The notes beneath the pieces were generated by a model that saw only the letters and a program-made list of their open reading frames with translations, ran no database searches and was not told the origin of the DNA. From an uncultured bacterium (GTDB taxonomy: Bacteria; Cyanobacteriota; Vampirovibrionia; Gastranaerophilales; Gastranaerophilaceae), in assembly GCA_949292185.1 (NCBI GenBank), contig CASEYP010000002.1:46142-110141 (forward strand): a stretch of 64,000 nt of DNA, written 5' to 3'. Position numbers and translations under genes: made by a program. Within the stretch, counting starts at the first letter, position 1. Every line of letters begins with the position of its first letter. Shown here one piece after another: positions 24,053 to 49,869 of the stretch.

Positions 24053-24136
24053 TGGTGGGCGTGAAGAGACTCGAACTCCCATGCCGAAGGCGCTAGATCC
24101 TAAGTCTAGTGCGTCTACCAATTTCGCCACACGCCC
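24053..24136 (-). tRNA. tRNA-Leu (anticodon UAG), CCA encoded
   Basis: Reverse complement: GGGCGTGTGGCGAAATTGGTAGACGCACTAGACTTAGGATCTAGCGCCTTCGGCATGGGAGTTCGAGTCTCTTCACGCCCACCA. 7-bp acceptor stem, anticodon stem CTAGA/TCTAG with loop CTTAGGA, long variable arm, TTCGAGT T-loop. Confidence 0.92.
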
Positions 24137-27135: not shown

Positions 27136-27603
27136 ATGAAAAGTATTACTATAAAAAAATGGATAGAACCATATAAACTATTAGAAAGCATAAAAGAAGA
27201 TTTTGAATATTCTGACTACACATTTGACGGTTCAAACAAAGAGTCAATGAAAAAAGAATTTTTAAAAGAACTTGAATCTAACACCTCATCAATTGGACTA
27301 TATATGAAAAACGTAAATAAATATTATTTGTTTACGCATAAAGCCATTTCTGCAGAACAATTATGGGAAAAACTTTGCAAAGAATTTGAATTTACCACAG
27401 CAGATTATGAAGAAACCGAAAACCTAGAAGAAAGCTTTCATCTGGTCGATATTGGAAAATCTGAAGCTAATTTAATTAACATAACCATCGACACCAAAGA
27501 AGCTAAAAACCCTGAAATTATATGGATAGAAGGTGAAGGTGCAGGTTACTGTATAACTGAAAAATATTACGAAAATAGACAAAAAGAAAATCATAAAAAA
27601 TAA
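27136..27603 (+). CDS. Acidic cytoplasmic protein, unknown function, abutting the ABC exporter gene
   Basis: 155 aa. Its ATG immediately follows the exporter's TAA (TAAATG at 27133-27138). Confidence 0.6.
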   Translation: MKSITIKKWIEPYKLLESIKEDFEYSDYTFDGSNKESMKKEFLKELESNTSSIGLYMKNVNKYYLFTHKAISAEQLWEKLCKEFEFTTADYEETENLEESFHLVDIGKSEANLINITIDTKEAKNPEIIWIEGEGAGYCITEKYYENRQKENHKK

Positions 27604-27611
27604 TATAAAAG

Positions 27612-27642
27612 GCAATTTTTCCGATCAAAAATACTTTATATA
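27612..27642 (+). promoter_or_regulatory. Regulon motif site: GCAATT-N13-ATACTTTATATA
   Basis: Exact match, ending 28 nt upstream of the CHAP gene ATG. Spacer contains ATTTTT-N6-AAAAAT. Confidence 0.6.
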
Positions 27643-27670
27643 AATATAGGGGAAAATAGAACGGGGAAAT

Positions 27671-28627
27671 ATGTATTTAGATTTTTATAATCCGATATCA
27701 TACAACACTGATGTTACAAGTCTCGTATATAACTACAACACAAGAAATATGGGATTATTTGGACAAAACTATTACTTCTTTGGCGGAAGTAATAATAATT
27801 CAATCTGGAATAATACAAATACCTGGTTTAGCGGATTTAACAGCATCTTTAACAATAACATGTTTGGTGGAAACAATATGTTTTTCGGGAATAATATGAC
27901 TTTCGGAAACAATTTCTTCGGCAATAACATGTTCTTCGGAAGTTCAAACCCATTTTCAAATATGAATACAGGTTCAGTTTGGATGTATCCAACCTATCAT
28001 TTTTATGGAACAGGCTCAAAAGGTAAAACTACCAGTTCATCTAGTTCTGCCAGTCCATCAAGTTCTATAAGTTCAACAAGTTCATCAACAAAAACATCCG
28101 AAGCTTCCCAAAAGCAAAAAGTAGAAGAAAAAGAAAAGACTCAAGCAAAAGTTCATAAACAAGAGGCTCACAAAACATCTATAGGAAAATCCTTAGCATA
28201 CGATGCAAGTAAATATCTTGGCTATAATGAAGCCGACGGCTCCTCTAAAAGATTTTCAGATAGCGGAGAATGGTGCGCAGACTTTGTGACTTTTGTTGTA
28301 AATGAAACATACGCTCAAAAAGGTCTAAAACCTCCTGCAGGGTTTGGCAACCACAGAGTTGAAAATCTAAAACAATGGGGCATAACAAACAACAAATATT
28401 TACCTATAGCAGGAAAATCAAATAAAGCGGACATAATCAAAAATCACGTCAAAATTGGTGATATAATGATACTTCGAGAAAACGGAGCATCTCATACCGG
28501 ATTTGTGTCTAAAATAAATGATGACGGATCATTTGAAACAATTGAAGGCAATAGAAATGATAAAGTTGTTAGACACACATACAGTCCAAACGACAATGAA
28601 CTTAGCGGATTTGTTCGAGTAGGGTGA
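27671..28627 (+). CDS. Leaderless CHAP-domain peptidoglycan hydrolase with N-terminal aromatic/Gly/Asn/Met-rich low-complexity region
   Basis: 318 aa. Residues ~27-100 are F/G/N/M-rich (NNMFGG NNMFFG NNMTFG NNFFG NNMFFG). Ser-rich linker at ~121-140. C-terminal CHAP domain (GEWCADFV Cys, ASHTGFV His, IEGN). Confidence 0.8.
   Translation: MYLDFYNPISYNTDVTSLVYNYNTRNMGLFGQNYYFFGGSNNNSIWNNTNTWFSGFNSIFNNNMFGGNNMFFGNNMTFGNNFFGNNMFFGSSNPFSNMNTGSVWMYPTYHFYGTGSKGKTTSSSSSASPSSSISSTSSSTKTSEASQKQKVEEKEKTQAKVHKQEAHKTSIGKSLAYDASKYLGYNEADGSSKRFSDSGEWCADFVTFVVNETYAQKGLKPPAGFGNHRVENLKQWGITNNKYLPIAGKSNKADIIKNHVKIGDIMILRENGASHTGFVSKINDDGSFETIEGNRNDKVVRHTYSPNDNELSGFVRVG
27851..27940 (+). repeat. In-frame degenerate ~18-nt tandem repeats encoding (NNMFFG)x5
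   Basis: aacaataacatgtttggtgga / aacaatatgtttttcggg / aataatatgactttcgga / aacaatttcttcggc / aataacatgttcttcgga. Confidence 0.8.
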
Positions 28628-31853: not shown

Positions 31854-32057
31854 CTAAATATTACCTAAATTATTCATCTGAGTAGCAGTAGTAGCTGCAG
31901 ATGCAGATGCAGGTGAAACAAGACCTTTTGATAACAATTCAGATAAATTAAACTTTTTCTTTTGTTGGTTTACTAAATAAGTTTTTGTACTATCTGCAAA
32001 ATCATTAACTTTATTAACAGCTGCTCCTGTAATTTTTGAAATTGATAATTCGGACAT
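31854..32057 (-). CDS. 67-aa hypothetical protein driven by a regulon motif
   Basis: GGAGGATGAGG RBS upstream. Motif site 35 nt upstream of the ATG. Ala/Ser/Thr-rich C-terminus. Confidence 0.55.
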   Translation of the reverse strand: MSELSISKITGAAVNKVNDFADSTKTYLVNQQKKKFNLSELLSKGLVSPASASAATTATQMNNLGNI

Positions 32058-32092
32058 AACCTCATCCTCCGTAGTTCATAATCGTTCTTATT

Positions 32093-32123
32093 TATATAAA
32101 GTATTTTTTAATGAGAGAATTGC
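32093..32123 (-). promoter_or_regulatory. Regulon motif site: GCAATT-N13-ATACTTTATATA
   Basis: Exact match on the minus strand (plus strand reads TATATAAAGTAT-N13-AATTGC), ending 35 nt upstream of the ATG at 32057. Confidence 0.6.
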
Positions 32124-32199
32124 ATAAAAACAAAATTATTGTTACATAAGTTTACAAAAAGGAAAAATAAATGAAATGTATCAAATTGATTGAATAATG

Positions 32200-32227
32200 T
32201 TGACAAAAAATTATGAGCGGATAGAAT
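32200..32227 (+). promoter_or_regulatory. Canonical sigma70-type promoter of tuf
   Basis: TTGACA (32200-32205), 16-nt spacer, TAGAAT (32222-32227), about 67 nt upstream of the tuf ATG. Contrasts with the regulon motif. Confidence 0.5.
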
Positions 32228-32294
32228 TAAGAATATCGTAAGATACTAAGTGTATAGTATTATATAGTAGACAAAAAAGAAGGAGATTAATCTC

Positions 32295-33503
32295 ATGGCA
32301 CGTGAAAAGTATGAACGTACGAAACCGCACGTTAACGTAGGTACAATTGGCCACGTTGACCACGGTAAAACTACATTAACAGCAGCAATTACCGGTACAT
32401 TAGCAGCAGCTGGTAAAGCAGATGCTAAAAAATTCGATGAAATCGATGCTGCTCCAGAAGAAAAAGCAAGAGGTATTACTATCTCTACTGCACACGTAGA
32501 ATACGAAACAGACAAAAGACACTATGCTCACGTTGACTGCCCAGGCCACGCTGACTATGTTAAAAACATGATTACAGGTGCAGCTCAAATGGATGGAGCT
32601 ATCTTGGTAGTTGCAGCAACTGATGGTGCTATGCCTCAAACTCGTGAACACATCTTGTTAGCAAGACAGGTTGGTGTTCCTAACCTAGTTGTATTCTTAA
32701 ACAAATGCGATATGGTTGATGATCCAGAATTATTAGACTTAGTTGAAATGGAAGTTAGAGAAATCCTTTCTCAATACGATTTCGACGGAGATAACATCCC
32801 ATTCATCCGTGGTTCAGCTTTAAAAGCTTTAGAAGCAGTTCAAGCTAATCCAAATATCCAAAGAGGAGAAAATGAATGGACAGATAAAATTTGGGAATTA
32901 ATGGATGCATTAGATACATACTTCCCAGATCCAGTTAGAGACTTAGACAAACCATTCTTGATGCCAATCGAAGACATCTTCTCTATCACTGGTCGTGGTA
33001 CTGTTGCTACAGGCCGTGTAGAACGTGGTATTGTTAAAGTTGGTGATGAAGTTGAATTAGTTGGTATCAAACCTACTAAGAAAACTACAGTTACTGGTGT
33101 TGAAATGTTCAGAAAATCACTTGACCAAGGTCAAGCTGGTGATAACATCGGTGCTTTACTTCGTGGTGTTGATAAAACTGAAGTTGAACGTGGTCAAGTT
33201 TTGGCTAAACCTGGTTCAATTCACCCACACACTAAATTCACAGCTAACGTTTACGTATTAACAAAAGAAGAAGGTGGACGTCACACTCCATTCTTCCCAG
33301 GTTACAGACCTCAATTCTACATCAGAACTACTGACGTAACTGGTACTATCCAATTTGACGGTCAAATGGTAATGCCTGGTGATAACGTTGTTATGACAGT
33401 TGAATTGATTGCCCCTGTTGCTATTGAACAAGGTATGAGATTCGCTATCCGTGAAGGTGGTAGAACTGTTGGTGCTGGTGTTGTTGACTCTATTATCGAA
33501 TAG
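32295..33503 (+). CDS. tuf: Elongation factor Tu
   Basis: 402 aa with [17 protein letters not shown] and NKCD motifs. Contains [16 protein letters not shown], matching the insertion I recall from cyanobacterial/plastid EF-Tu. Confidence 0.97.
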
Positions 33504-33529
33504 TTTTATTAACCATTCAATATAAATAA

Positions 33530-33560
33530 AAAGACTTGATATCAAAGATATCAAGTCTTT
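33530..33560. terminator. Bidirectional terminator shared by tuf (+) and the RHH operon (-)
   Basis: 14-bp perfect stem AAAGACTTGATATC / GATATCAAGTCTTT with loop AAA and A/T runs on both sides. Confidence 0.85.
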
Positions 33561-33637
33561 TTGTTACTTACATTACTTTCATAATCTTTACCGAGAAAAC
33601 TTATTATAAATCCAGAAGACCTCTTACATTTATAAAT

Positions 33638-33814
33638 TTATGCTAATAAAGCTTCTAAAATCTTAGCATTAGTTTGAGCTCTGCGAATATTTAATAAATA
33701 TTTTTCAACATTTGCTCTAATTTCTTGAGCATCGTTATCCAAATATTTCACTTCGCTATCAAGCATTTTCAAATATTCATTTACTGTAATCATTTGATAA
33801 CTTTTGTTATTCAT
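33638..33814 (-). CDS. 58-aa micro-protein, paralogue family member (ITVxEY motif and NAKILEALLA tail)
   Basis: Own translation: MNNKSYQMITVNEYLKMLDSEVKYLDNDAQEIRANVEKYLLNIRRAQTNAKILEALLA. Below the track's length cut-off. Starts 39 nt downstream of the RHH gene, with GGGGAA before the ATG. Confidence 0.7.
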   Translation of the reverse strand: MNNKSYQMITVNEYLKMLDSEVKYLDNDAQEIRANVEKYLLNIRRAQTNAKILEALLA

Positions 33815-33853
33815 TTCCCCAATTCCTTTTTCTAAATTTCCCCTTTTAAAATT

Positions 33854-34042
33854 TTAACCTAACAGAGCTTCTAATATTTCTGCATTTGAAACAGCCTTTT
33901 TACCATTTCTAACTTGTGATCTGTACATATAAGTTCTTAATGCTTCTCTGATCAATTCTGAACGTGTACGATTTTCTGAATCTGCAACTGAATCGATTTC
34001 ATTTAAAAACTTTTCAGGCATTGAAATTAATACTCTTGCCAT
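33854..34042 (-). CDS. Ribbon-helix-helix (CopG/Arc-like) DNA-binding protein with family-specific C-terminal tail
   Basis: 62 aa: MARVLISMPEKFLNEIDSVADSENRTRSELIREALRTYM (strand-helix-helix pattern) followed by the tail ...KKAVSNAEILEALLG. Confidence 0.8.
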   Translation of the reverse strand: MARVLISMPEKFLNEIDSVADSENRTRSELIREALRTYMYRSQVRNGKKAVSNAEILEALLG

Positions 34043-34085
34043 ATTTTTCTCCTTTAATTTTTCCTATTTGTAATCCCCTTACTTA

Positions 34086-34116
34086 TATATAAAGTATTTT
34101 TGTTTGCAAAAATTGC
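34086..34116 (-). promoter_or_regulatory. Regulon motif site: GCAATT-N13-ATACTTTATATA
   Basis: Exact match on the minus strand, ending 43 nt upstream of the RHH ATG (34042). Confidence 0.6.
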
Positions 34117-34209
34117 GCATTTTATAAAGAAAAAGTATATAATCTTAATATAATGTTACAATTCAAAAAGCAAGAGCCACAAGGAATATAAACCCCTAAA
34201 CACACAAAA

Positions 34210-34239
34210 AGGATGTTGAGTATAATACTTCAACATCCT
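34210..34239 (-). terminator. Terminator of the 99-aa gene
   Basis: Stem AGGATGTTGA(G) / (T)TCAACATCCT with an 8-nt loop. On the minus strand it is followed by TTTTTGTGTG. Confidence 0.75.
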
Positions 34240-34264
34240 AAACTGTTTATATTGTGATCTTGAA

Positions 34265-34564
34265 TTAACCTAACATAGATTCAAGAAGATAAGCATTAAT
34301 TCTAGCTTTACGAGATTTGCTTAAAGACAATTCTATTGATTTTTCGATTTCTCTATCTTCAGCAGTTGAATATTTAACTTTGTCTAAAGCTGATGCATAT
34401 TCTTTTACTGTTATAAATTGAGAAGCTTGGGATAATGCACATTGAGCTTTTAAAGATTTAGCATAATCAGATGCTGTAATCATTGTATGTCTTTGAGCAT
34501 TCTCTTTTTTCATTGACTCAACATAGTCATTAACTGTCATTAAATCTGAATAATTATTGTTCAT
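34265..34564 (-). CDS. 99-aa paralogue with a triplicated N-terminal module and the family tail (INAYLLESMLG)
   Basis: Three copies of h-[IM]-T-[VA]-x-[DE]-Y-[VA]-x-[SA]-[ML]-x at residues 8-19, 28-39 and 50-61. Has its own motif promoter and terminator. Confidence 0.7.
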   Translation of the reverse strand: MNNNYSDLMTVNDYVESMKKENAQRHTMITASDYAKSLKAQCALSQASQFITVKEYASALDKVKYSTAEDREIEKSIELSLSKSRKARINAYLLESMLG

Positions 34565-34602
34565 ATATTTCCCCTGTTCTCTTAATATTTTACCCTTACA
34601 TA

Positions 34603-34633
34603 TATATAAAGTATTTTTCTATTTAAAAATTGC
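34603..34633 (-). promoter_or_regulatory. Regulon motif site: GCAATT-N13-ATACTTTATATA
   Basis: Exact match on the minus strand, ending 38 nt upstream of the ATG at 34564. Confidence 0.6.
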
Positions 34634-34695
34634 CTATTTTTTATATAAATTTTACATATTTTAACATTTAAATACAAGTTCTTAACAAATCGAAA

Positions 34696-34718
34696 GGGGC
34701 AGGCGTTAAACCTGTCCC
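34696..34718 (-). terminator. Weak terminator hairpin after 56-aa gene copy 1
   Basis: GGGGCAGG / CCTGTCCC arms (one mismatch when read on the minus strand), followed by CTTTCGATT as at copy 2. Confidence 0.45.
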
Positions 34719-34749
34719 TTAAACTTGTATCTTAATAGAATCCTATTTA

Positions 34750-34920
34750 TTAAGCTAATAAAGCTTCAACGATTTTGGCATTTGTTTTTGCTCTTTGAAC
34801 ACTTAATAAATATTTTTCAACACTTGCTTCAATTTCTTTTTCTTCGATTGATAAACATTTTACATTATCTAAGCTATCAACATAATCTTTAACTGTTATC
34901 ATTTCATAATCATTTCTCAT
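34750..34920 (-). CDS. 56-aa micro-protein, copy 1
   Basis: Own translation: MRNDYEMITVKDYVDSLDNVKCLSIEEKEIEASVEKYLLSVQRAKTNAKIVEALLA. AAGGGGAAAAG RBS. Protein identical to copy 2, with only synonymous DNA differences. Confidence 0.8.
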   Translation of the reverse strand: MRNDYEMITVKDYVDSLDNVKCLSIEEKEIEASVEKYLLSVQRAKTNAKIVEALLA

Positions 34921-34965
34921 AATCTTTTCCCCTTATATTTTTTTTATTCTCTTATCCCTTACATA

Positions 34966-34996
34966 TATATAAAGTATTTTTCTATTTAAAAATTGC
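34966..34996 (-). promoter_or_regulatory. Regulon motif site: GCAATT-N13-ATACTTTATATA
   Basis: Exact match on the minus strand, ending 45 nt upstream of the ATG at 34920. Confidence 0.6.
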
Positions 34997-35068
34997 CTAT
35001 TTTGTAGTTATTTTGTATATAATTTTTACATATTTTAATACCTATAAAATCACTAATCATAATCGAAA

Positions 35069-35099
35069 GGGCAGAATTAAATTTAATTTAATTCTGCCC
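35069..35099 (-). terminator. Terminator after 56-aa gene copy 2
   Basis: 13-bp perfect stem GGGCAGAATTAAA / TTTAATTCTGCCC with a 5-nt loop, followed on the minus strand by TTTCGATT. Confidence 0.7.
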
Positions 35100-35131
35100 T
35101 TATAAACTTTTTATAGATTATATTTTATTTA

Positions 35132-35302
35132 TTAAGCTAATAAAGCTTCAACGATTTTAGCATTTGTTTTTGCTCTTTGTACACTTAATAAATATTTTTC
35201 AACGCTTGCTTCAATCTCTTTTTCTTCAATTGATAAACATTTTACATTATCTAAGCTATCAACATAATCTTTAACTGTTATCATTTCATAATCATTTCTC
35301 AT
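35132..35302 (-). CDS. 56-aa micro-protein, copy 2
   Basis: Same 56-aa protein as copy 1. Five nucleotide differences, all at third codon positions and all synonymous. Confidence 0.8.
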   Translation of the reverse strand: MRNDYEMITVKDYVDSLDNVKCLSIEEKEIEASVEKYLLSVQRAKTNAKIVEALLA

Positions 35303-35348
35303 AATCTTTTCCCCTTATTTTTCTCTTTATTTTCTTATCCCTTACACA

Positions 35349-35379
35349 TATATAAAGTATTTTTCTATTTAAAAATTGA
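35349..35379 (-). promoter_or_regulatory. Regulon motif site, variant TCAATT-N13-ATACTTTATATA
   Basis: One mismatch (T for G) in the distal hexamer. Ends 46 nt upstream of the ATG at 35302. Confidence 0.55.
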
Positions 35380-36710: not shown

Positions 36711-39700
36711 TTATTTAACTAATACTAAATTTTTACCACATTCATCTGTTTTATTTTCATAAGCCTTACAAATCGTTCTGGAATTAGGCTTAACATCATA
36801 TCTGCCGGTAAATGTTAATGGTGTATCTTTCGGAACAGAATAAAGGATTAATGTCGTATCATTTAGAGGAATTGAACCATCACCTGATCCTCGCTTGATG
36901 AAATATTTACCATCAATCTCATTGACATAATATTTATCATTCTCATCCTTTGCATTCACAAATTCAGTACCAGGTTTCAAGCCAGGGATACCAACTCCGC
37001 CTTCACCATCAATATAAACCGTTTTCTCGCCACCATTGCCGGTGCGTTGAACATCAAAGTTCAATTTTATAGAATCTAAAACAATATTATCTTGTTTATA
37101 TTCACGTCTGTGATCAGTATGAAGAGCTGAAGTATTAAATAATGAAATTGCCATTCTACCGTCAGGGCTCTGTCTAAAGATAGCAGGAACTTTAACATGT
37201 TCTTTTGAATCTTGTAACGGTAAAGTATAAACTGCACCATTATTCAAAGCATTACATTTTGGATTTCTACGAACTGCCATAACTTCATCAAAATATTTCT
37301 TATATTTTGCAATAAATGGTTTATATTTAGTTGCGTCAGTGAAATCCAACCATTCATCATGAACTCTTTGACGACCTTGTAAGAACATATTCTTAGTTTT
37401 TGTATCATAACCAGTTGCACCTACATCGTCGCCATCAAATAAAGTTGGCATACCTGGTAATGCTACAACATATTTCATCATACCTAAGACTTTTGATAAT
37501 GCAGGCTTCATAACAGCTTCAAACACGTCATTTTCATAATCTGCATCAGCTCCAGGTGGTAATTGGAAACCATATTGACTTCTAGCTTGTTTTAACACCA
37601 TTGATATTGTTACATCAATAGGTTTTACACCAAACGCATCCGGATCAAATCGTTTGCCCATAAATTTACCTTGAGCTAAATCAGAAATAGCTTTACTTAT
37701 TGGTATGAAAGCTTTATTAAACTGTTCATCAGAACCCAATTCATTTCTATATTTATCTCTATAATTATTTAAGACATCAATAAATGCAGGTCTTAAAGCA
37801 TCTGCCATAGCAATAGCTTTTGGTGATACTGCAGAGAAATCATAATTATCAACTTCTGCATCTGAAATTGGTTCTAAGAATTTATCTTTAATAATTTGGT
37901 AAGCCTTACGTCTATTTTCACGACCTTCTACATAGTTCAAATCACAGTAGAATAATGACATATCCAAAGCTGCACAATGCAATGCTCTAGGTTTATCATG
38001 GTTACCTATAAATGTATAAGCATACATTACAGAATCCAAGCCTCCGGATCTGATAAACGGATTATTTCCACCTACCATTTTTTCAAATATTACTTTTTGA
38101 AGATAATTACTATCTGTAAAATATGTACCATCTTCAAAATCTTTTGCAAACATATTTGAAATTAATCTAAACCAATGAGTATAATTTGCAGTTGAAGACA
38201 TGCCTGTTTCTCTTTGGAATTTAGAAACAATGTCATTGAACTTGTTAGGGAATTTTCTAGAAGCACTTCCATAGCCTCTTTCGTGCAAATTGATTTCATC
38301 AGTAATTTCTGCAACCGTATAAGCATTTGGATTAATCTTAATAACGCCCTGAGTAAATTTATTCCAGAAATTAATAACTTGTTGCCAAGTATATTCAAAG
38401 TTTGTATTTGTGTTACGTAAAGCTTCAACATCAGCAATATCTTTTGCAGCGTCAATTCTCCAATCTAAACCTGATTGTGCTTTATCAATAATTAAATCTG
38501 CTAATTGGAAACTTGCGAGATTTGTATCTTTTAAGGTTCTGACCATAGATTCAACAATTTCACTATCTATAGATGAATCCAAATTCTTCATTCCTTTACG
38601 TAAACGATGTAACAACATCTGAGCTTCATCTTTAGGTGATGCAGGATTTAGAATACCTATACCTTGTAATGATAATTGCTTTAATTCTTTATAATCGTAT
38701 GATAATTCACCACTTGAAGAATTTATTGCAACAGTAACATTCGGATCTAATGATTTTATAACTGCATATTTAGCAATCATCGGCAACAATATTGGTAACG
38801 CGTATTTACCAAATTCAGTAACTTCATCACCATCAAATAATTTCTTATCATCCGGTAATACAGAATCAACTTGATCCAATACTGTAGTTGCAAAATTAGA
38901 CATTTCCTGAGTATAGATTTTATCCATCTGCTCATATGTATCTTTATACTCTGCAGGAAGATGTTTATTACCTTCTTTATAGATTTGATATCTTGGAACA
39001 GCAATATCAGAAGGAACTACCGCTCTTTTTGAAATCAATGGAGATGCTAATACTGAAACAATGTTGTCCCCTAATTCAAAAGAATCCAATGGAGTATTCA
39101 TCAAACCTTCTAAGATTTGAGATTTCTTGTCTTCATTTGATAATACTCTTTTATTATTATAAAAACCTTCTAATACATTTTCCACTTCAGTTTTTGAAAC
39201 TTCTGCCTTCAATGATTTAGGGAAAATCTTATTATTAGACATATCTACGATTTGACTATAAACTTTAGACGGATTATTTACATCCACGTTTCTTAAAGTT
39301 TGTGCTACATACAATCTTAAAATATCATCAGTCTTAGCTGTCCAATATTGTCCTGAAGATATAGCATAATCTTGAACTTGCATATTACCGCGAATAATTT
39401 TCTTCATTTCGCGTTTTCTCTCATCTACAGGCAAGTTAATTAAAGACTTTGTATCAGCATTTGAAAATACAAAATTCAATTTTGCAATATCAGGGTTAGC
39501 ATCCCAAGTTTCAAAACCACTTTCGTATTTACCATCGACTACAAAGTTTCTGAATTTAGATAAGAATCTTGAACCCATTGGACCATTCATTGTAATTGGT
39601 CTATCCGGATTCATATCATTATATTTATTTAAGTTTTTAATATTATCATTATAAGTTTCAGGATTTATTTCAAATGCGTATGGGAACACTGAATCATTAT

Positions 39701-40871
39701 GAGAATGTAAATCATATACATTTGGAGTACTCATCTTTGAATAAGTTTTTATCAAAGATTTATTATCATTTCTTTCTTCTTCAGTAACTAAACGTGTATC
39801 AAAGAATTGAATGTATGTTGGTTTTTTAGGATCATAAGCTCTATTTTTCTTAATTGAAATATGCCCAATTCTATTTTGAGAATATGAATAAGGTGAGTTT
39901 ACTATTTTATGTGAAATATAATCTTTATTCTTTACAAAAACGCCCAAAGATAAAGGATTATTCTTTATCCCTGATGCTCTAAACCAATTTATATATGGAG
40001 AATCATCACCCCATTTTAAAATATGTTTAAAGTGAACACCTTCCAAACCTTCATTGACAAAAGCACCATCTGAAACAAAATTCAAACCATGCGCAAACAT
40101 TTTTCTCTGTAAAGAAGCATAATTATTTATATTACCAAGAGAACTTGCCATCTGCATACAGTTTTTATTCCAATAAGCATGGGCTGTAAAATCATCATCT
40201 GTAAATATTGGTAATGAAATTATTCTGCTATAACCATCATAATCGCCTTTATCTACAGCATATTCTAAACCTGCCAAAGTGCCACCAAACTTATTAGCTA
40301 CAGTTTTAATACCCTTTTCGCCTCTTTCAGCAAGTTTTTCATCTCTAACAATCATGTTTTGGTCATTATATACATACCCTACCTTTTGGGAATCTATAAT
40401 AACCAATTTCATGGCTCCACCTTTAGATAAGTTAGATTTTGTAGGTACAACTATATTAAATATATTTCTATTTTCATTAGCGCTTGAACGTTCATCTATA
40501 ATTTCACCGGCATCAACTCTGGTCTTTGTATAACCGGTCTTTTTATCAACTAAAAGGAAATGATATGCAAAAGCTTGATTATCGTCAAAACCATACTTTC
40601 TTGCCAAATCAACTTTATTTACACCAGGTTTTAACTCAATATTGTCTTTACCGTCACGAGAATAGGCTTTACCTGTAGAAAAATAATTGCCATATCTATC
40701 TTGATCTAATTTATAGATTTCAAGATAACATCTATCTTTATTCTCGTCATACGGATAAGAAAATTCAAATTCTCTAAAACCTTGATCTGATTTATCAAAC
40801 TTATACCCTTGAAATGCAACTGAATTATTATTTTCAGCCTTATTCTTCTTTAAATCAAAATTTACTTTCAC
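36711..40871 (-). CDS. Giant GH13 (alpha-amylase family)-like protein, no signal peptide
   Basis: 1386 aa. GH13 landmarks by eye: GGTLAGLEY...SLPIFT...HAYW; region I NFVSDGAFVNEG (aa 264-275); region II LDWRIDAAKD (802-811); region III TVAEITDE (852-859); region IV FIGNHDKPR (954-962). Confidence 0.7.
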   Translation of the reverse strand: MKVNFDLKKNKAENNNSVAFQGYKFDKSDQGFREFEFSYPYDENKDRCYLEIYKLDQDRYGNYFSTGKAYSRDGKDNIELKPGVNKVDLARKYGFDDNQAFAYHFLLVDKKTGYTKTRVDAGEIIDERSSANENRNIFNIVVPTKSNLSKGGAMKLVIIDSQKVGYVYNDQNMIVRDEKLAERGEKGIKTVANKFGGTLAGLEYAVDKGDYDGYSRIISLPIFTDDDFTAHAYWNKNCMQMASSLGNINNYASLQRKMFAHGLNFVSDGAFVNEGLEGVHFKHILKWGDDSPYINWFRASGIKNNPLSLGVFVKNKDYISHKIVNSPYSYSQNRIGHISIKKNRAYDPKKPTYIQFFDTRLVTEEERNDNKSLIKTYSKMSTPNVYDLHSHNDSVFPYAFEINPETYNDNIKNLNKYNDMNPDRPITMNGPMGSRFLSKFRNFVVDGKYESGFETWDANPDIAKLNFVFSNADTKSLINLPVDERKREMKKIIRGNMQVQDYAISSGQYWTAKTDDILRLYVAQTLRNVDVNNPSKVYSQIVDMSNNKIFPKSLKAEVSKTEVENVLEGFYNNKRVLSNEDKKSQILEGLMNTPLDSFELGDNIVSVLASPLISKRAVVPSDIAVPRYQIYKEGNKHLPAEYKDTYEQMDKIYTQEMSNFATTVLDQVDSVLPDDKKLFDGDEVTEFGKYALPILLPMIAKYAVIKSLDPNVTVAINSSSGELSYDYKELKQLSLQGIGILNPASPKDEAQMLLHRLRKGMKNLDSSIDSEIVESMVRTLKDTNLASFQLADLIIDKAQSGLDWRIDAAKDIADVEALRNTNTNFEYTWQQVINFWNKFTQGVIKINPNAYTVAEITDEINLHERGYGSASRKFPNKFNDIVSKFQRETGMSSTANYTHWFRLISNMFAKDFEDGTYFTDSNYLQKVIFEKMVGGNNPFIRSGGLDSVMYAYTFIGNHDKPRALHCAALDMSLFYCDLNYVEGRENRRKAYQIIKDKFLEPISDAEVDNYDFSAVSPKAIAMADALRPAFIDVLNNYRDKYRNELGSDEQFNKAFIPISKAISDLAQGKFMGKRFDPDAFGVKPIDVTISMVLKQARSQYGFQLPPGADADYENDVFEAVMKPALSKVLGMMKYVVALPGMPTLFDGDDVGATGYDTKTKNMFLQGRQRVHDEWLDFTDATKYKPFIAKYKKYFDEVMAVRRNPKCNALNNGAVYTLPLQDSKEHVKVPAIFRQSPDGRMAISLFNTSALHTDHRREYKQDNIVLDSIKLNFDVQRTGNGGEKTVYIDGEGGVGIPGLKPGTEFVNAKDENDKYYVNEIDGKYFIKRGSGDGSIPLNDTTLILYSVPKDTPLTFTGRYDVKPNSRTICKAYENKTDECGKNLVLVK

Positions 40872-48564: not shown

Positions 48565-48595
48565 GCAATTATTTACAAGATATATACTTTATATA
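48565..48595 (+). promoter_or_regulatory. Regulon motif site: GCAATT-N13-ATACTTTATATA
   Basis: Exact match, ending 29 nt upstream of the ATG at 48625. Confidence 0.6.
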
Positions 48596-48624: not shown

Positions 48625-49869
48625 ATGGGTATCTACGGAGCAGGCAAAGCCTTCAACTATGAATTTATACGAAGAGGACAGGTTTCAAGAAATCCAAAAA
48701 TCATCCAAAAACAACCCGCAAATGTAGTTTTTGGAGGACACTCAGTAACAAAGACCACAAATATAACTGTAAATAATGGTCCAACAGGTTTTTGGGGCTT
48801 TTTGGGTGGATTTATGAATAGCCTATTCGGCGGTGGATTAAGCTTTGGTGGATTCAATAGCTTTAGCAATTTTGGTATGGGTATGGGCATGGGTATGCCA
48901 ATGATGGCAAGTCCATTCGGAATGCTAAACCAAACACAAATGAATTCAAAAACACCAAAATCCGGAGATAGACTAAACGATTTAAAAACATTATATCCTG
49001 ATTGGAATATCGTATCAGATGGAAATGGCAATTATGATGCAACATCAAAAGATGGTACAGTGCATCACAAAGGCAATTTTGAACAAATGTGCGAATTATT
49101 AAAGAAAAGCTCTGAAGCAAAAGATCCACAAGGAAAAGATTCTGGAGCAAAAGTAGATGATGATGGTAAAGACTCAGGATCAGGTGCCGGCTCAGCTTCA
49201 GGTGCCGGCTCAGCTTCAGGTGCTGGCTCAGGCTCAGGTTCCGGTTCAGGATCCGGCTCTGGTTGGGATGCTGCAACTGCAAATGATTTAAAAGGATTTA
49301 CTGGAAATATCTCTGTTAATGACTTTGCTTCTGGTGGAGGCGCATCAATAAATGGAGCTACTGTATTATCAAAACCTGGTGAAAACACTCAAGGATTCCC
49401 TGCAAAAATAGCTGTCAAAGGATATCAATATGTATTTCAATCTGTAGACTCAGATGGTAAAGCAATTTACAAATCTATGAACGGTAAAGGCGACACATAT
49501 AAACTTGAAAAACAAGGTGATAGCTTCGGATTAAATCAACACGAAGGAGACAGTCTATCAGGTGTTGGAAGCATCGATATTGGAGGTGCAAGTTCAGCTG
49601 GTTCCGCAAGTAAAGCAAACAAAAGTTCTAAAACTCCAAATTCTAAACCGGTAAATGATAATAAAGAGATAAAAAGAAATAATGACGGATCCGTAACAGT
49701 AACAATAGGCGTTCCGTACAAAAATACAGGAACAGTAACTTTAAAACCATCAGAAATTAAAGGACTGAATGATGAACAAATAAAAGAATTGGCAGAAGAA
49801 AAAATAAAAGAACAAAAAACTCCAAAATTACAAGTTCCTAAATTTTCTAATTTTTCAAACATACAATAA
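48625..49869 (+). CDS. Leaderless protein: F/G/M-rich low-complexity N-terminus, (GAGSAS)/(GS) linker, unknown C-terminal domains
   Basis: 414 aa. Residues ~53-101 read GFWGFLGGFMNSLFGGGLSFGGFNSFSNFGMGMGMGMPMMASPFGM. Residues ~184-213 are a Gly/Ser/Ala linker. AAGAGGA RBS. Confidence 0.75.
   Translation: MGIYGAGKAFNYEFIRRGQVSRNPKIIQKQPANVVFGGHSVTKTTNITVNNGPTGFWGFLGGFMNSLFGGGLSFGGFNSFSNFGMGMGMGMPMMASPFGMLNQTQMNSKTPKSGDRLNDLKTLYPDWNIVSDGNGNYDATSKDGTVHHKGNFEQMCELLKKSSEAKDPQGKDSGAKVDDDGKDSGSGAGSASGAGSASGAGSGSGSGSGSGSGWDAATANDLKGFTGNISVNDFASGGGASINGATVLSKPGENTQGFPAKIAVKGYQYVFQSVDSDGKAIYKSMNGKGDTYKLEKQGDSFGLNQHEGDSLSGVGSIDIGGASSAGSASKANKSSKTPNSKPVNDNKEIKRNNDGSVTVTIGVPYKNTGTVTLKPSEIKGLNDEQIKELAEEKIKEQKTPKLQVPKFSNFSNIQ
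49183..49263 (+). repeat. 18-bp in-frame tandem repeat (GC-rich) encoding the GAGSAS/GSGS linker
   Basis: GGTGCCGGCTCAGCTTCA occurs twice perfectly (49183-49218), then GGTGCTGGCTCAGGCTCA and GS-coding degenerate copies. Confidence 0.85.

Follow-up and report, generated by a model that had tools for sequence, protein, structure and literature searches.

Gastranaerophilales are an uncultured, widespread gut order of two-membrane bacteria, non-photosynthetic relatives of cyanobacteria. The substrate of wall hydrolases lies beyond the inner membrane, and two-membrane bacteria nearly always equip these enzymes with Sec, Tat or lipoprotein signals. Here we describe a stretch of 64,000 nucleotides from a member of this order (GenBank assembly GCA_949292185.1, contig CASEYP010000002.1, positions 46,142 to 110,141 of the forward strand; hereafter the window), and in particular a gene on its forward strand (27671–28627, stop codon included) that encodes a leaderless CHAP hydrolase of 318 residues, delineated from its open reading frame (ORF), Pfam and a homologue search. 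From N- to C-terminus, the protein comprises a short conserved peptide, an uncharged disordered head, a flexible spacer and the catalytic domain.

Architecture of the CHAP protein

The catalytic domain occupies residues 176–318 (28196–28624, forward strand) and was delimited from Pfam, invariant residues, an AlphaFold2 model and Foldseek. The match to the Pfam CHAP family (PF05257) covers residues 197–294 (E = 1.4e-9; 38.8 bits against a cut-off of 26), and alignment places the catalytic codons at 28274–28276 (Cys202), 28493–28495 (His275) and 28544–28546 (Glu292). Cys202 (in GEWCADFV), His275 (in ASHTGFV) and Glu292 with Asn294 (in IEGN) are invariant in 89/89 aligned homologues. AlphaFold2, supplied with the family alignment, folded residues 170–318 into a papain-like alpha+beta structure with a predicted local distance difference test score (pLDDT) above 90. 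Foldseek matched this model in the PDB to the CHAP amidases 5t1q, 5udm and 2k3a and to PcsB, with weak E-values because half of the model is disordered, and in BFVD to phage CHAP/PlyB-like endolysins and TIGR02594-type phage proteins (best E = 1.2e-7). The domain also has a weak match to a PHROG endolysin family, and a sequence search of the PDB returned zero matches. Membership of TIGR02594 itself was rejected, the score being 38.6 bits against a cut-off of 70.55 and the alignment limited to residues 260–308. The protein is thus predicted, from sequence and model, to be a catalytically competent peptidoglycan amidase or endopeptidase of the phage-endolysin type.

The reading frame opens at 27650, only 7 codons ahead of the ATG. 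Because none of these codons is ATG, GTG or TTG, a longer N-terminus is impossible, and we ruled out an upstream start or a hidden signal peptide. By a crude hydropathy measure and inspection of the sequence, the protein has no signal peptide, membrane helix, twin-arginine motif or lipobox. The Kyte-Doolittle mean over 19 residues reaches a maximum of 0.33 over the full length, and a lipobox is precluded because the single Cys is the catalytic Cys202. This feature is shared by the family: a hydrophobic core within the first 60 residues was found in 0/89 homologues. A double-glycine leader was also considered and rejected, as the Gly positions vary in the family alignment.

The N-terminal peptide (residues 1–26, MYLDFYNPISYNTDVTSLVYNYNTRN; 27671–27748, forward strand) was defined from a family motif, the AlphaFold2 model and codon variation. 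The motif, phi-x-x-P-I-[ST]-Y-N-T-[DN]-[VI]-N, is followed by a short amphipathic helix and begins 3–9 residues after the initial Met in most homologues; in the model, residues 1–25 have a pLDDT of about 70, with a helix at residues 16–24. At the conserved motif residues the synonymous codons vary (19 loci), so the peptide is translated and selected at the protein level. Searched with a hidden Markov model (HMM) of the peptide, related loci totalling about 680 kb yielded orthologues only, and among 1.84 billion representative proteins a profile search gave 16 matches, all of them family members or truncated copies.

The head (residues 27–118; 27749–28024, forward strand) was recognised by its composition and by its pLDDT below 50, and AlphaFold2 leaves the whole of residues 28–167 disordered. 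It contains 22 Asn, 16 Phe, 15 Gly and a single charged residue, and within it lies an Asn/aromatic/Gly-rich run of 91 residues without Lys, Arg, Asp or Glu (mean hydropathy −0.46), the longest uncharged run among the 60 ORFs of the window; only the protein encoded from 48625 has another long uncharged non-membrane run in this comparison. Across the family the composition of the head is kept, its sequence and length are not: heads measure 45–164 residues (median 105), with 17% Asn, 22% Phe/Tyr/Trp, 10% Gly and about 6% charged residues, and many are closed by a P-x-Y-N-F-x-G or N-I-F-K motif. Five NNMFFG-like repeats (NNMFGG, NNMFFG, NNMTFG, NNFFG and NNMFFG) lie at residues 62–90 (27854–27940, forward strand), and Tandem Repeats Finder detected corresponding DNA repeats at 27853–27941 with periods of 18 and 33. 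They are limited to the window protein and a 97%-identical relative, and appear from this distribution to be a recent local expansion. The spacer that follows (residues 119–175; 28025–28195, forward strand), delimited by composition and predicted disorder, holds 18 Ser, 10 Lys and 7 Thr; family spacers have a median of 48 residues with 17% Thr, 17% Lys and 16% Ser.

The initial annotation of this gene had described a CHAP-type hydrolase lacking a Sec/Tat signal or lipobox, with five tandem NNMFFG-like hexapeptides in a three-part plan of head, linker and globular tail. Each of these points agrees with the data above: the Pfam score, the intact catalytic set and the modelled fold for the domain; the hydropathy profile, the sole catalytic Cys and the 89 homologues alike for the absence of a signal; the DNA repeats for the hexapeptides; and the conservation of the three-part plan across the family. 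Among the observations named as able to overturn it, an in-frame upstream start revealing a signal peptide cannot exist within the 7-codon open stretch; as for a head not conserved in homologues, composition is conserved, sequence and the NNMFFG repeats are not.

A fixed chromosomal slot and its occupants

We identified 238 homologues of the CHAP protein, most of which span 99% of the query. A scan of one genome per species yielded 49 CHAP loci, 45 of them in genomes labelled Gastranaerophilales, Melainabacteria, Vampirovibrio or Cyanobacteria bacterium, or in gut genomes with the same synteny. We conclude that the family is confined to Gastranaerophilales. The window has a G+C content of about 31% and encodes an [FeFe] hydrogenase, UvrA and LigA, together with a weak, sub-threshold BamA-like match, which fits a two-membrane anaerobe of this order.

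Upstream of the CHAP gene, a conserved neighbourhood comprises an alpha/beta hydrolase gene, then an MsbA-like ABC transporter gene; downstream, on the opposite strand, lie coaE, a pseudouridine synthase gene, a thioesterase gene and then rex. Among the 45 loci, coaE follows the CHAP gene in 39, the coaE, pseudouridine synthase and thioesterase genes are each kept in 38–39, and the ABC transporter is found upstream in 32. Throughout Gastranaerophilales, a fixed slot convergent on coaE is thus normally occupied by the CHAP gene. Among 2.9 million viral contigs, no relative of the protein exceeded 32% identity, the remote CHAP matches lying at 28–32%. This housekeeping synteny (38–39/45 loci) and the lack of close viral relatives led us to reject a prophage origin and to regard the gene as a core chromosomal gene. 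A holin gene adjoins it in 0/45 loci, no adjacent immunity or lysis gene was seen at the surveyed loci, and the window and flanks hold no secretion-system genes. A 155-residue acidic protein is encoded directly downstream of the ABC transporter gene (27136–27603) and has zero family matches; as it separates the transporter and CHAP genes in only 12/45 orthologous loci, we discarded it as an immunity gene or partner.

The catalytic domain in the slot facing coaE is exchangeable. In four loci (L123 and L176–L178), coaE is faced by a headed, leaderless M23 peptidase of 251–253 residues behind the same promoter, recognised by Pfam and synteny (L123, 2490–3251; L176, 8001–8756). Its M23 domain is 66–71% identical to the C-terminal domain of 440-residue phage-tail-like proteins (PF22759 + PF01551). 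In this lineage the upstream neighbours are rplS, a GTPase gene and rnhB instead of the ABC transporter gene, so the transporter is not an obligate partner. Another locus (L079) has two headed Cys/His proteins in the slot; a papain-like hydrolase assignment for the Cys/His domain of L079 and L069 was not confirmed by Pfam, the PDB or hhalign. Candidatus Adamsella avium (L042, 2057–6423) encodes four leaderless lysins in tandem, three of which share an N-terminal peptide, M[TS]YVSP[MF]GAYI[NQ]T, and differ in their catalytic domains. This peptide is loosely like the CHAP family motif, and the N-terminal HMM does not connect the two. The fourth lysin has 769 residues, with an acidic region, a long Glu/Lys-rich, probably coiled-coil region and a CHAP-like C-terminus.

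Two familiar export routes were examined and rejected. Export by the adjacent MsbA-like transporter, as in type 1 or other ABC systems, is contradicted by the lack of a C39 peptidase domain in the ABC protein, by its presence upstream in only 32/45 loci and by its absence where M23 fills the slot. Flagellar export of the FlgJ type is unlikely because the CHAP gene is present in Zag_111 (L012), a genome reported not to encode a full flagellar gene set (PMC4040986); moreover, Pfam gave no rod-binding match and no flagellar family among the proteins that share the promoter of the CHAP gene.

Elsewhere in the window, on the reverse strand, a tRNA gene (24056–24136) is the only Rfam match, and a 1386-residue ORF (36711–40871) has no Pfam match and only a weak cyclomaltodextrinase-like one.

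An order-wide promoter and the proteins behind it

The CHAP gene is preceded by a promoter (GCAATTTTTCCGATCAAAAATACTTTATATA; 27612–27642, forward strand) that is one of seven such sites in the window and is conserved before orthologues. The element ATACTTTATATA occurs in 8 exact copies in the window, and with up to one mismatch the count rises to 10, where chance predicts 2.3. Seven window sites fit a single 30-nt architecture, GCAATTTTT, about ten bases, then ATACTTTATATA, and they precede the CHAP gene, the gene at 48625 and five small genes at 31854–35378. Promoter and 5' leader (AATATAGGGGAAAATAGAACGGGGAAATATG) are both near-identical upstream of orthologues whose proteins are only 40–50% identical. 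The leader (27643–27670, forward strand) contains two GGGGAAA boxes, the second of which is the likely ribosome-binding site. Both here and in the orthologous loci this segment (AATATAGGGGAAAATAGAACGGGGAAAT) is more conserved than the encoded protein; an RNA element was sought in it, with zero Rfam matches.

An exact-pattern scan of metagenome contigs located the promoter in at least 120 stretches (L050–L169), from which the counts given below are drawn; the same pattern is almost absent from viral contigs, where two stretches were found. The order-wide consensus, built from 165 instances, is GCAATTTtt-N6-AAAAATACTTTATATA (30 nt). Loci with the promoter have a median G+C content of 33%, and in 41/120, housekeeping proteins are shared with reference loci of Gastranaerophilales (median identity 68%). 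The promoter does not appear to match the consensus of sigma-28, sigma-54, extracytoplasmic-function (ECF) sigma factors or cyanobacterial SigF, and its resemblance to that of sporulation sigma-K is no more than loose.

The first ORFs behind the promoter fall, among the matches listed, into about 59 families of at least 60 residues, mostly unannotated, in gut metagenomes. A hydrophobic N-terminal core was present in 0/56 of the promoter-driven ORFs (the CHAP family excluded) and in 144/647 (22%) of the other ORFs of the same loci, used as controls, on one crude measure (Fisher p = 2.5e-6). Uncharged non-membrane runs of at least 40 residues were found in 5/56 promoter-driven and 9/647 control ORFs (p = 0.003), and several of these 9 controls are themselves set members behind slightly variant promoters. 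Pfam identified SLT, glucosaminidase, M23, LysM and subtilase members as well as a second CHAP family, alongside ABC1 kinase, HD, GNAT and DHH/DHHA1 members; 33/35 further families had no strong Pfam match, no holin family was matched, and an ADP-ribosyltransferase-like reading of some members was dropped when Pfam returned nothing. All wall-active members are leaderless, and Phe, Met, Ser, Pro, Gly and Asn abound in the uncharged heads that most of them carry; in the LysM protein, the LysM domain itself stands at the N-terminus. The second CHAP family (PWCASFV, GHVGI and VEGN; L159, 1310–2044; L069, 3215–3928) has a different uncharged head, ending in PSYNFGSFG in L159. In 1.5 Mb of loci, a sample biased to promoter-bearing and CHAP loci, every ORF related to the wall-active catalytic domains lacked a hydrophobic N-terminus, bar one from a locus outside Gastranaerophilales. 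We conclude that the promoter set is depleted in Sec-type N-termini and enriched in wall-active proteins of the same design as the CHAP protein, and that no fewer than five further kinds of wall-active protein belong to it, most of them with comparable heads.

Three further proteins of the set (L052, 774–1820; L075, 408–1037; L132, 1033–1650) combine one membrane helix with a long N-terminal region that is uncharged and rich in Gly, Tyr and Asn. A Lys/Trp-rich tail (SKLNPKNWF repeats) closes those of L052 and L075, and by the positive-inside rule it suggests that their uncharged region faces outward.

Within the window, a variant copy of the promoter with a palindromic right half, located by a pattern scan (48566–48595, forward strand), precedes a gene for a leaderless protein of 414 residues (48625–49869, forward strand) with a Gly/Phe/Met-rich uncharged segment at residues 44–108. 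A homologue search places it in a separate lineage-specific family with 54 homologues, its own conserved N-terminus, a Gly/Leu/Phe/Met-rich segment and no Pfam domain. The protein carries GFWGFLGGFMNSLFGGGLSFGGF...GMGMGMGM, and its homologues have GLFGG repeats. The segment is borderline hydrophobic and could be membrane-active. The small-gene cluster with five promoter copies (31854–35378, reverse strand) encodes proteins of 67, 62, 99, 56 and 56 residues, of which the 62-residue protein is a ribbon-helix-helix protein. The two 56-residue genes are identical, a 58-residue paralogue at 33638–33814 has no detected promoter copy, and several of the small proteins share a C-terminal ..NAKI[LV]EALLA/G motif. 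A ribbon-helix-helix gene with the same promoter also occurs in at least seven other genomes.

The initial annotation had also linked the CHAP gene to the gene at 48625–49869, proposing a common promoter and a head shared as a module for non-classical export, envelope anchoring or self-assembly. The common promoter is confirmed by the 30-nt architecture and its order-wide conservation. The heads are not one homologous module, as BLASTP found no similarity between the CHAP head and the 48625 protein, and the profile search found the N-terminal peptide on no other family. The broader expectation, that co-regulated proteins have low-complexity heads, gains support from the leaderless M23, SLT, glucosaminidase and second CHAP proteins behind the promoter, whose uncharged heads are comparable.

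Possible routes to the cell wall

We propose, with a probability of about one half, that the CHAP lysin is delivered to, or retained at, the wall by a Sec-independent route through its N-terminal peptide and head. The peptide and head would form a delivery or retention module, and the lysin, made in the cytoplasm, would reach the wall without Sec, through a dedicated exporter or a controlled permeabilisation of the membrane. Once there, the flexible spacer would let the CHAP domain cut stem-peptide or amidase bonds. A route that has not been described before is likely because several wall enzymes found across the order share the leaderless headed design and the promoter. The most likely target of the enzyme is the wall of the producing cell, since its gene is a core gene and has no immunity partner. 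FtsEX-driven PcsB of Streptococcus pneumoniae, one of the structural matches, is likewise a core-gene product with an N-terminal non-catalytic module (a coiled coil), a linker and a C-terminal CHAP domain. Unlike the CHAP protein, PcsB has a signal peptide and its coiled coil is folded; the ABC transporter adjoining the CHAP gene is MsbA-like rather than FtsEX and is not kept where M23 replaces CHAP.

Several observations weigh against this proposal. We identified no export machinery for the headed lysins, and we infer, rather than observe, that the CHAP protein leaves the cytoplasm. Its head is too hydrophilic for membrane entry. The promoter set also holds apparently cytoplasmic enzymes (HD, DHH/DHHA1, GNAT, ABC1 kinase), and ordinary cytoplasmic proteins may account for part of the signal-peptide depletion, while hydrolases with signals may lie outside the promoter-bearing and CHAP loci to which our sample is biased. 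Moreover, because the heads are non-homologous and the N-terminal peptide is family-specific, the sequences do not point to a single shared recognition signal.

The main rival is that the protein is a domesticated endolysin in a system of programmed lysis or holin-gated release: it would stay in the cytoplasm at first and degrade the wall once the inner membrane has been breached by co-regulated membrane proteins, with the head serving in latency or wall binding. Phage lysis, pyocin release and the holin/hydrolase type 10 secretion system offer parallels. Phage CHAP endolysins (PlyB-like and TIGR02594-type) are the best structural matches and are leaderless, with the same fold and Cys/His/Glu-Asn set, and the slot M23 domain is close to phage-tail-like proteins too; there is no immunity gene, and the promoter set holds small membrane proteins, a ribbon-helix-helix regulator behind the same promoter and proteins with glycine-zipper-like segments (one weak, sub-threshold Pfam match). 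However, the CHAP gene lies neither in a phage genome or prophage nor beside a holin at any of the 45 loci, but in a fixed chromosomal slot, and the protein scores below the TIGR02594 cut-off, with a disordered uncharged head in place of any folded wall-binding domain. Holin families were matched by none of the members of the promoter set, which, at perhaps hundreds of genes, is large for a lysis cassette. The hydrolases of type 10 secretion, Serratia ChiX and Salmonella TtsA, resemble the CHAP protein in being chromosomal, phage-derived and without signal peptide in two-membrane bacteria, yet they adjoin their holin and lack a low-complexity head. We therefore consider holin-gated release unlikely. 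The second rival, an antibacterial weapon, is improbable in our view, although the initial annotation had kept an effector role open. The protein would be a contact-dependent effector, or a bacteriocin like colicins and pesticin whose peptide and head translocate it into the target periplasm. Its layout parallels theirs, since those proteins are leaderless and combine a short conserved N-terminal peptide, an uncharged, disordered Gly/Asn-rich segment and a C-terminal killing enzyme, which in pesticin is a muramidase; the head evolves fast, the tandem lysins of Candidatus Adamsella avium join a common N-terminus to different catalytic domains, and TIGR02594-like CHAP proteins are named in phage papers and in two type VI secretion papers. 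Type VI Tae effectors are likewise papain-like wall amidases without signal peptide. Set against this, the CHAP protein has no receptor-binding domain, mobile context or adjacent immunity or lysis gene (the 155-residue upstream gene being present in 12/45 loci only), and Tae effectors differ in being small and single-domain and in being encoded within secretion-system clusters together with periplasmic immunity genes, features of which none is seen for the CHAP protein. An effector role is weakened by the fixed core-gene position across the whole order, between an ABC transporter gene and coaE, and by the lack of a neighbouring immunity gene.

A purely cytoplasmic role, in which the substrate of the CHAP domain is a soluble amide, such as wall-recycling peptides or a thiol conjugate, or the protein acts as a scaffold, its head forming a condensate or coat-like structure, would explain the lack of an export signal and sit well with the cytoplasmic enzymes of the promoter set. 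CHAP domains can act in the cytoplasm, as in glutathionylspermidine amidase, and the head composition is like that of phase-separating sequences; it recalls the cohesive GLFG-type FG nucleoporin domains, with their Phe-Gly motifs, uncharged Asn-rich spacers and predicted disorder, in composition only, as there is no homology and the setting here is bacterial. We regard this role as very improbable, since M23, SLT, glucosaminidase and LysM proteins, which have no known cytoplasmic substrates, share the leaderless design and the promoter, and since the replacement of CHAP by M23 in the slot points to the wall as their common substrate. Finally, an annotation artefact, with the true start elsewhere and a signal peptide or with an untranslated head, is refuted by the stop 7 codons upstream with no intervening start codon, by the synonymous changes that accompany conservation of the N-terminal peptide in 19 loci, and by homologues that start at the same place.

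A wider version of the proposed delivery to the wall is tentative and, in our judgement, doubtful: a new Sec-independent mechanism may deliver or organise the wall hydrolases of Gastranaerophilales, and perhaps much of the promoter set of more than 50 families, by recognising short N-terminal peptides and uncharged aromatic/Asn/Gly-rich heads. It would rely on a new exporter or on a condensate-like phase in the envelope, with the CHAP protein as its most conserved client.

The pattern of leaderless headed lysins is lineage-wide, and we found no description of it in the literature searched, which also gave nothing relevant on wall or secretion biology in Gastranaerophilales. The promoter provides a simple sequence handle to list the co-regulated set, which consists mostly of proteins of undefined function, and the headed lysins are compact and easy to clone. 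If their heads are indeed delivery or retention modules, they would represent an undescribed way of bringing proteins to the wall in a widespread group of uncultured gut bacteria.

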